Source: a virus
Lineage: Duplodnaviria > Heunggongvirae > Uroviricota > Caudoviricetes
Strand: one strand, 5' to 3'
Virus record (IMG/VR): IMGVR_UViG_2541047807_000012
DNA length: 43,752 nt
This document shows positions 16,437 through 17,196 of the stretch, piece by piece (the stretch's first letter is position 1; the number at the start of each line of letters is the position of its first letter). Below the pieces are notes generated by a model. It was given only the letters and a program-made list of their open reading frames with translations, was not told the DNA's origin and searched no databases. The position numbers were made by a program, and so were the translations under genes.

Positions 16437-16988
16437 ATGACACAAGACTATGAACTGGTTGTGAAAGGAGTCCGCAATTTTGAGAATAAAGTGGCGGTAA
16501 CTGTAGCCTTACGGGACAAAAAACGCTTTGACGGTGAAATTTTTGACCTGGACATCTCGCTGGACCGTGTTGAAGGTGCCGCGCTGGAGTTTTATGAGGC
16601 AGCAGCCAGAATGAGAATCAGACAGGTATTCCTGGATGTTGCTGCCGGGTTATGTGTAGGGGATGAGCAGTCGCCGGAAAAGCGCCCCATAATTTTAGAG
16701 GCGCAGAATGTGTGGATAACCTACAAAGGAAAGCTACCGGGAAGAATTACTGGTTCTCTGAAGACGCCACCGACGGCATTGCGGTCAGAAAAAGATGATA
16801 TTGAATCGCCCATTGAAAAACTGGAGGGCAGCGTCGCTGATCTGAATAAAAAATTGTCGGTGCTGATCCCTTCTGAAGATGAAAAAAAACGCCGCGATGA
16901 GCAGTTTGCGGCGTTTTACGATTATTGCATTGAAGTTACTCGCAGGAATTTTGTGAAGATTTTTGAGGAGGGTAAATCTCTTCAGTAA
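16437..16988 (+). CDS. Hypothetical protein inserted between holin and endolysin
   Basis: 183 aa from the ATG at 16437; charged, predicted helical C-terminal half. No family recognised. Confidence 0.5.
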   Translation: MTQDYELVVKGVRNFENKVAVTVALRDKKRFDGEIFDLDISLDRVEGAALEFYEAAARMRIRQVFLDVAAGLCVGDEQSPEKRPIILEAQNVWITYKGKLPGRITGSLKTPPTALRSEKDDIESPIEKLEGSVADLNKKLSVLIPSEDEKKRRDEQFAAFYDYCIEVTRRNFVKIFEEGKSLQ

Positions 16989-17196
16989 GCTTAATGGCGG
17001 ACGCTGCAATTAATTCAGGAAGGTCCGCAAGGTCATCTGTCAGTGGATATGATGAAAAATCGGCGGCAGTTCTGTTAAGAAGCGCTTTAACTAATTCCTT
17101 TTCCTTCTCCGGCAACAAGTTGATTAGAGCTACGACTGCTTGCCTGAGTGCGATTAAATCAGCAAAAGTTTGTTTTGGTAGATTTGTGTAATCCAT
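16936..17196 (-). CDS. Small acidic hypothetical protein, convergent with the 16437..16988 gene
   Basis: 86 aa from MDYTNLPK, with an AGGTGA Shine-Dalgarno about 6 nt upstream; 3' ends of the two genes overlap by ~50 bp. Confidence 0.4.
   Translation of the reverse strand: MDYTNLPKQTFADLIALRQAVVALINLLPEKEKELVKALLNRTAADFSSYPLTDDLADLPELIAASAIKLTEEIYPPQKSSQNSCE

Follow-up and report, generated by a model that had tools for sequence, protein, structure and literature searches.

What sits between the holin and the endolysin of a lambdoid lysis cassette when two genes, one on each strand, interlock there at their 3′ ends, and do these genes belong to lysis at all? The question is raised by a window of 43,752 nucleotides (nt), the IMG/VR virus record IMGVR_UViG_2541047807_000012 (Caudoviricetes), the whole of which is a Qin-like lambdoid prophage with a lysis region 100% identical to that of E. 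coli S19-141. In it the stop of the holin gene (S) and the start of the endolysin gene (R) lie 877 bp apart (16433..17309), so that the lysis genes are not contiguous. A first look at the letters alone (the sequence-only reading) had placed two open reading frames (ORFs) in this gap, and the ORF list bears it out: ORF-A (16437..16988, + strand) encodes 183 amino acids (aa) from its ATG, or 190 from a TTG at 16416, and ORF-B (16936..17196, − strand) encodes 86 aa from its ATG, or 88 from a GTG at 17202, the two converging over a 3′ overlap of 53 nt (16936..16988). ORF-A, a member of the YdfR/DUF1327 family encoded in the late operon, carries a small helical tail fused to its C-terminus; ORF-B encodes a distinct protein that is small, acidic and helical. 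Conserved and mobile, the convergent and 3′-overlapping pair of tail and ORF-B is an accessory cassette in the lysis regions of lambdoid prophages and does not serve a core lysis function.

Residues 1-112 of ORF-A match PF07041 (DUF1327/YdfR) over profile positions 1-92 of 93, with a score of 140.8 bits where the gathering cutoff is 25 (E = 1.6e-41), the full length matches phrog_2091 (E = 5e-112), and residues 1-72 are 83% identical to those of K-12 YdfR. ORF-A also occupies the place of the YdfR gene in lambdoid prophages, directly after the S21-type holin gene and before the endolysin gene. The sequence-only reading had taken holin, endolysin and spanin genes to be normally contiguous; this premise fails for the present lineage, because S-ydfR-R-Rz is the order both of K-12 Qin (essQ-ydfR-rrrQ-rzpQ) and of most of the 11,953 matching places that we found in 5,153 of 5,426 complete E. 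coli genomes. It had also recognised a family in neither protein, which does not hold for ORF-A and is overtaken for ORF-B by a full-length match to phrog_2572 (E = 1e-53); that family, like phrog_2091, carries no assigned function. The K-12 Qin cassette has the same holin, endolysin and spanin families, with ydfR directly after S, but differs in that its YdfR (P76160) is only 103 aa long and overlaps the start of R, with no tail and no antisense gene. YdfR proteins in fact come in lengths of 103, 114-116, 176, 183, 211, 268 and 296 aa, sharing the N-terminal part and differing at the C-terminus. In ORF-A the DUF1327 portion (16437..16772, + strand) comprises a beta-beta-beta-alpha domain, modelled by AlphaFold2 with a predicted local distance difference test score (pLDDT) of 63-83 over residues 1-70, and a middle segment predicted to be disordered; the C-terminal part is modelled as a helical hairpin at low confidence.

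Comparison with the 116-aa short form of YdfR locates the fusion. The two genes are 91.5% identical in nucleotides up to 16772, and blastn against the short-form locus (L113) finds homology over 16217-16772 and 17283-17843 only. The 510 bp in between (16773..17282, with genes on both strands) are present here and absent there, and K-12 Qin lacks 16637..17299. The gained or lost segment contains the C-terminal ~70 residues of ORF-A, all of ORF-B and the ORF-B upstream region; its GC content is 43.3%, a modest difference from its flanks (48.8% and 51.3%). Thus the suggestion of the sequence-only reading that the pair might come and go as a unit stands insofar as a single segment carrying both is gained or lost, while the unit is not ORF-A plus ORF-B but the end of ORF-A plus ORF-B and its upstream sequence. 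The portion of ORF-A within the segment (16773..16988, + strand) is a charged helical stretch of ~70 aa, hydrophilic (grand average of hydropathy, GRAVY, −0.75 to −1.0), and it is homologous to standalone proteins of 67-73 aa, namely P0163 from E. coli and P0150 and P0155 from Salmonella. In RefSeq the annotation pipeline PGAP (Prokaryotic Genome Annotation Pipeline) marks only the first 112 codons (16437..16772), as a YdfR-family pseudogene "missing C-terminus" (NZ_CP075640.1, JFX59_RS25755). ORF-A is an unbroken, conserved fusion of YdfR and the tail, and the pseudogene call is probably a mis-annotation that arose from the fused tail.

The nature of the conserved unit emerges from relatives in which the YdfR domain is lacking. 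In group I, that of the window, an S21 holin gene is followed by a YdfR gene (183, 176 or 211 aa) that converges on an 86-aa ORF-B with a 53-nt overlap, ahead of a SAR (signal-arrest-release) endolysin gene. Group II (L009, L096-L103) keeps the order of S21 holin, YdfR, ORF-B and endolysin, with a YdfR of 174 or 243 aa made of a K-12-type middle and a diverged tail, an ORF-B of 93 aa and an overlap of 59 nt. Group III, from Salmonella and relatives (L006-L008, L091-L095, L105-L107), is arranged as endolysin (GH19, SAR-type or 139 aa), DUF2514 spanin, a tail-only protein of 73 aa, a converging ORF-B of 93 aa with an overlap of 59 nt, and then terS. Group IV, from E. coli with a late region like that of Stx phages (L108-L110), has a tail-only protein of 67 aa directly between the S21 holin and a converging ORF-B of 86 aa, followed by the endolysin. 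Because the four architectures include such tail-only partners, what is conserved is the pair of tail and ORF-B; this unit can do without the DUF1327 domain, and ORF-A is a fusion. In 105 of 105 surveyed loci the tail gene runs in the late direction and ORF-B follows on the opposite strand, directly beside lysis genes that include SAR lysozyme, GH19 or 139-aa endolysins and two spanin types. Between relatives the protein identity is 41-57% for ORF-B and 20-37% for the tail; the ORF-B relatives at 57% and 41% came from an exhaustive HMMER search, where a word-indexed search had shown E. coli only. The HMMER search also matched a 975-aa TPR/CHAT protein (P0139), which we rejected as a relative since the similarity is repeat-driven. 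One Salmonella protein (P0018) looks like a deletion that fused the N-terminus of ORF-B to antisense tail sequence.

The group I form is present in 353 of the 5,426 complete E. coli genomes (~6.5%), those of MS7163, PCN061 and STEC strains among them, always on the chromosome, and in the phages 2H10, PhiR63_1, PhiR5_1 and PhiR12; scans of GTDB genomes and of JGI metagenomes yielded one extra locus each. Other YdfR variants carry different small antisense ORFs between ydfR and R: orf6 of Stx2 phage 86 (104 aa, L004:2441-2755) and an ORF of 79 aa in Ecol_AZ159 (L005:2041-2280). We tried both as distant homologues of ORF-B, and hhalign did not support it (E = 0.61 and 0.064). Because different antisense ORFs thus lie at the same place, the S-R gap seems to be a hot spot that has repeatedly gained opposite-strand cargo.

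Are both genes of the cassette real? Conservation as coding sequence, on which the sequence-only reading had let its case depend, was found for both: ORF-B and the tail each show a coding-type substitution pattern across the diverged relatives. For ORF-B the test has to be between strands. A + strand ORF of 65 aa (16994..17191) lies antisense to it and is open in all diverged groups. In a control, synonymous recoding of either frame left the other open in 30-100% of trials; openness therefore cannot discriminate the strands, and we used codon-position and dN/dS (nonsynonymous to synonymous rate) tests instead. The two frames share their wobble positions and swap positions 1 and 2, which is the basis of the strand test. 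In three independent between-group comparisons, differences at positions 1, 2 and 3 of the ORF-B frame numbered 40/27/44, 29/23/40 and 30/24/41 (sums 99, 74 and 125), and the excess of position 1 over position 2 is as expected if ORF-B is the gene. Read in the ORF-B frame, Nei-Gojobori dN/dS between groups was 0.29-0.33, against 0.33-0.57 for the antisense frame, with ORF-B below any antisense frame in five of six pairs and one tie. Amino-acid identity was higher in the ORF-B frame too, and replacements were more conservative (mean BLOSUM score −0.4 to 0.0 vs. −0.6 to −1.3). The start codon and Shine-Dalgarno sequence of ORF-B are aligned in every group; the + strand ORF has no Shine-Dalgarno sequence and its ends vary between groups (65, 63 or 115 aa), and it is most likely a by-product of ORF-B codon content. 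For the tail, dN/dS outside the overlap was 0.31-0.39, and inside the overlap the synonymous rate of the tail frame was depressed, as expected for dual coding. The ORF-B product (RefSeq WP_001306174.1, hypothetical protein) has an isoelectric point of 4.6, so that its acidity is confirmed, and AlphaFold2 predicts a coherent three-helix bundle (pLDDT 73, from a shallow alignment).

ORF-B appears to bring its own expression signals. The Shine-Dalgarno sequence reported by the sequence-only reading is present as GAGGTG (17200..17205, − strand), ending 3 nt before the ATG, and groups II and III have an equivalent TAAGGA at the same distance. The late promoter, to which that reading had assigned the whole insert, cannot express ORF-B, because ORF-B runs opposite to the genes of that operon. 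A terminator-like hairpin of 10 bp (16882..16917, − strand) lies 18 nt downstream of the ORF-B stop codon; it is formed by AAAACGCCGC, a 12-nt loop and GCGGCGUUUU, with U residues continuing after it (U8), and has a fold energy of −17.8 kcal/mol (z = −2.6); a consensus scan missed it because of the 12-nt loop. It lies within the ORF-A codons for KKRRDEQFAAF. Its 8-bp core, with a compensatory GC to AU change at one pair, is intact in seven of seven distinct sequences and is kept in all groups though the encoded peptide differs (RRDE..AA vs. RHHENGVA). The hairpin is thus a predicted terminator of the kind that a self-contained unit such as a moron would carry. On the other side of ORF-B, a candidate promoter (17266..17310, − strand) consists of the A/T-rich block ATGGATATTTATCAGG (17310..17295), a −35-like TTTATC (17294..17289), a 17-nt spacer and a −10-like TATGTT (17271..17266). 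In an alignment of eight sequences, 15 of the 16 positions of the block are invariant, and the eight loci share the form ATG(G/T)ATATTTATCAGG, TTTATC (CTTATC in one locus), 17-nt spacer, TAT(G/T)(T/G)T. The spacer is constant in length and variable in sequence, and the hexamers and upstream block are conserved in all groups, including Salmonella where terS, not R, adjoins. This pattern is that expected of a promoter and suggests that the element may be the ORF-B promoter.

These features invite comparison with the morons reportedly defined by Hendrix and Juhala, of which lambda bor, on the opposite strand between Rz and nu1, is an example. Like bor-type morons, ORF-B is a single small opposite-strand gene in a late operon, absent from close relatives and lower in GC, with its own ribosome-binding site, terminator-like hairpin and promoter-like element, and the Salmonella ORF-B lies in the Rz-terS gap. 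As judged from its indel behaviour, lower GC and own signals, ORF-B has most of the marks of a moron. It differs in that its product is an acidic, helical protein of the cytoplasm that has neither lipobox nor signal peptide, and in that it is always interlocked with a co-varying late-strand partner (53-59 nt of overlap, the terminator within the partner's codons).

We therefore favor, at a rough probability of 0.45 and so a little short of an even chance, a moron-like but interlocked cassette in which ORF-B is a leftward unit, the tail is a late product, the two are mutually exclusive and ORF-B counteracts its late partner. ORF-B would be an autonomous transcription unit of moron type, with the promoter-like element shortly before the start of R, its Shine-Dalgarno sequence and the predicted terminator in the tail codons; the conservation of these signals suggests that it is made while late transcription is off, during lysogeny or in the early phase of infection. 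As gene order and coupling, both directly observed, lead one to expect, the Q-antiterminated late transcript would yield the tail protein (fused to YdfR in this prophage) along with holin and endolysin. Late transcription would then traverse the ORF-B unit head-on, and its mRNA and that of ORF-B would be complementary over ~100 nt. With head-on transcription and such complementarity the products would be mutually exclusive, and ORF-B would most likely counteract or substitute for the activity of the tail.

What the late partner might act on is hinted at by the YdfR domain. Phage proteins that bind RNase E are known, such as T7 gp0.7, phiKZ Dip and T4 Srd, and we know of no similarity of YdfR to any of these three. 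Residues 1-72 of K-12 YdfR bind the RNase E catalytic domain, by two-hybrid and co-purification, and RNA co-purifies (Gopel et al. 2026, PMC13232886); the N-domain of ORF-A, as a close homologue of this segment, resembles the RNase E binders in that respect. That same study did not demonstrate that YdfR alters RNase E activity (PMC13232886). RNase E and RNA binding by the homologue suggest that the late partner may act on RNA turnover and not directly on the envelope.

Several observations weigh against the favored interlocked cassette. Promoter and terminator activity, mutually exclusive expression, interaction of the proteins and the link to RNase E are all things that we infer. A 296-aa YdfR variant has a tail-like segment and no antisense ORF, so the tail does not strictly need ORF-B; the two proteins are both acidic; and overexpression of K-12 YdfR barely altered the transcriptome (PMC13232886). 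As to the signals, covariation in the hairpin has no statistical support (a score as high as that observed came up in 136 of 500 shuffles, there being too little variation), and the U-tract is strong in groups I and IV only and weak in II and III. A consensus scan did not call a sigma-70 promoter for ORF-B, and the hexamers match 7 of 12 consensus positions. Part of the conserved upstream block is found also beside R in L113, the prophage without the module, so it may serve R instead; the block at 17283..17312 may serve ORF-B transcription, R translation, or both. Finally, ~15% of group I ORF-B copies (L010-L090, from IMG/VR and GTDB) no longer have their start or stop codon. Of the damaged copies, seven lack the start (ATG to ACG, as in P0002), four read through a lost stop to give 137 aa and one ends early at 18 aa, losses that are consistent with decay in cryptic prophages.

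Searches for function returned little beyond the families above, and the lysis-timing, toxin-antitoxin and defence or anti-defence roles offered by the sequence-only reading drew no support from homology or structure searches. Pfam, NCBIfam and PADLOC gave nothing beyond DUF1327 for either protein: no PADLOC-DB defence-protein hidden Markov model matched at E up to 1, no toxin or antitoxin family matched in the three collections, and there was neither a match to a lysis-category PHROG or Pfam family nor a transmembrane segment in either protein. Matches to ABATE and DUF1823 were sub-threshold and not significant; they account for the label "DUF1823" that the PhiR phage records bear. PDB sequence searches gave nothing significant, Foldseek against PDB found no match for ORF-B, and Rfam found nothing.

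The first of the other explanations, which we think unlikely, is that the cassette sets the timing of lysis, the tail being a cytoplasmic regulator of holin triggering or of SAR-endolysin release, much as T4 RIII aids the antiholin, with ORF-B tuning or blocking it. Position argues for this: the pair is inside or at the end of the lysis cassette in all 105 loci, and the tail gene begins 0-4 nt after the stop of the preceding gene, be it the holin (L108-L110), the spanin (L105) or, here, by way of a YdfR gene that starts 4 nt after the holin. Its company argues against it. The pair occurs with unrelated holins (the S21 pinholin; holin_8 with holin_3_7; a 136-aa holin) and alongside endolysins of three types, which speaks against a specific partner among the lysis proteins; the absence of transmembrane segments and lysis-family matches counts against it as well. 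Nor is the pair needed, since cassettes function without it, as in the K-12-type and 116-aa forms; the phage 21 lysis cassette likewise works without the pair.

An ambitious extension of the favored cassette, which we regard as doubtful, would make of it a hitherto undescribed two-protein convergent switch within lysis cassettes, in which ORF-B as an inhibitor made in lysogeny opposes the tail (sometimes fused to RNase E-binding YdfR) as a late effector, the two being kept exclusive by head-on transcription and antisense pairing. Such a switch might be a safety catch or commitment device acting on late-mRNA decay or on lysis, or else an anti-CRISPR (Acr)-like anti-defence gene with built-in antisense control.

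That the pair is a toxin and its antidote, for addiction or abortive infection, is decidedly unlikely. Here the tail or the whole of ORF-A would be toxic and neutralised in the lysogen by the ORF-B protein or by the 3′ end of the ORF-B mRNA as an antisense RNA. In its favor, the two genes make up a compact, mobile pair that is inherited together in every case, many antitoxins are small and acidic as ORF-B is, and the convergent 3′ overlap resembles some type I loci, of which txpA/RatA and bsrG/SR4 of B. subtilis are examples; with these the locus shares convergent units, complementary 3′ ends and a prophage location. It differs from them in that both partners are conserved as proteins and the late-strand product is hydrophilic, not a membrane peptide and not known to be toxic: in place of a small hydrophobic toxin and a non-coding antisense RNA there are the hydrophilic tail, at the GRAVY values given above, and an ORF-B that is not merely RNA, being under protein-level selection. 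Nor is this a type II system, with co-directional, co-transcribed genes and recognisable folds, for the genes converge. Besides the lack of any toxin or antitoxin match, copies with a broken ORF-B persist, and overexpressed K-12 YdfR is not toxic (PMC13232886), though K-12 YdfR has no tail.

We give a slim chance to the proposal that ORF-B is a prophage protein for anti-defence (Acr-like), defence or superinfection exclusion, and the tail an unrelated late gene that merely overlaps it. The moron-like placement of ORF-B, in Salmonella at the position of lambda bor, and its small, acidic, helical product would suit such a role. Over nearly its full length (residues 25-86) the ORF-B profile aligns to residues 20-84 of the anti-CRISPR AcrIIC4 (PDB 7xvo, 8hns, 7msl, 7f7p), likewise a helical, prophage-encoded protein of ~88 aa, with the common motif LPxxxxExxKxLxxxxxxxFSS. 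The similarity is not significant (E ~0.2) and has no structural support, and we keep AcrIIC4 as a lead only; the lack of any PADLOC defence match is reported above. It is, lastly, very improbable that ORF-B is no gene, and the pair an artefact of annotation produced by a + strand gene at 16994..17191 or by non-coding sequence, for although that ORF is open in all groups and shares wobble positions with ORF-B, openness can be a by-product either way (0.3-1.0 of trials), and the order of substitutions (position 3 > 1 > 2 in the ORF-B frame), the lower dN/dS, higher identity and more conservative replacements, the aligned start and Shine-Dalgarno sequence, and the coherent three-helix model all point to ORF-B.

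Both proteins are already catalogued as families without known function, and the convergent pair and the fusion nature of ORF-A appear to be undescribed: a search of the literature library by accession numbers, PHROG ids and genes intervening in lysis cassettes found nothing on the tail/ORF-B pair. The pair is real, widespread and testable, and nothing yet indicates an unusual function. It can be tested directly because propagatable phages carry it (the four named above). The S-R region of the very common Qin- and Stx-like lambdoid prophages is a modular hot spot, and should the pair prove to regulate lysis, the stability of late mRNA (through the reported link of YdfR to RNase E) or conflict between prophage and host, it would add a new accessory layer to one of the phage modules studied best. 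Even as a minor moron it corrects the annotation: the supposed pseudogene ORF-A is an intact fusion, and ORF-B is a genuine gene of the opposite strand.

The neighbours of the pair are ordinary members of a Qin-like lysis region. The holin gene (16217..16432, + strand) encodes an S21-type class II (pin)holin (PF04971, E = 7.3e-34; PHROG holin; named essQ in RefSeq). The endolysin gene rrrQ (17310..17843, + strand; PF00959, E = 2.6e-24) encodes a protein with a hydrophobic N-terminus that on inspection is rich in Ala, Gly and Ser, from which SAR behaviour would be expected. In the stretch 17283..17312 its start codon (17310) has no recognisable Shine-Dalgarno sequence and is preceded by a direct repeat, GATAAATCCTGATAAAT; on the opposite strand this block is also conserved beside ORF-B in Salmonella loci where no endolysin gene adjoins. 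An Rz-like i-spanin gene (DUF2514, rzpQ) follows at 17840..18337 (+ strand; PF10721, E = 1.9e-38; phrog_312), and out of frame within it is an ORF for an Rz1-like o-spanin lipoprotein with the lipobox LTSC (17991..18287, + strand), which has no annotation in the RefSeq record of identical sequence. In the same record a phage tail protein gene at ~27788..28365 is annotated as frameshifted, so the prophage may not be fully intact.

Upstream, ~450 nt before the holin gene, a strong terminator-like hairpin (15746..15765, + strand) of AAACCCGC-TCAG-GCGGGTTT followed by a T-run lies where a tR′-type late terminator is expected. Weak sub-threshold Rfam matches (Trp leader, small RNAs) over 15682..15831 probably reflect this hairpin, and after it comes the zinc-ribbon gene ynfU (15828..16049) on the opposite (−) strand. 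The flanking cspB, cspF, cspI, ynfU and ynfN match Qin genes. Cold-shock paralogues surround the cassette as they do in K-12 Qin, namely cspF (14736..14948, − strand), cspB (15249..15464, + strand) and cspI (18698..18913, + strand), and downstream are the small genes ymcF and ynfN and, at ~19588..19761, gnsB, a gene of the GnsA/GnsB family annotated as an "addiction module toxin".

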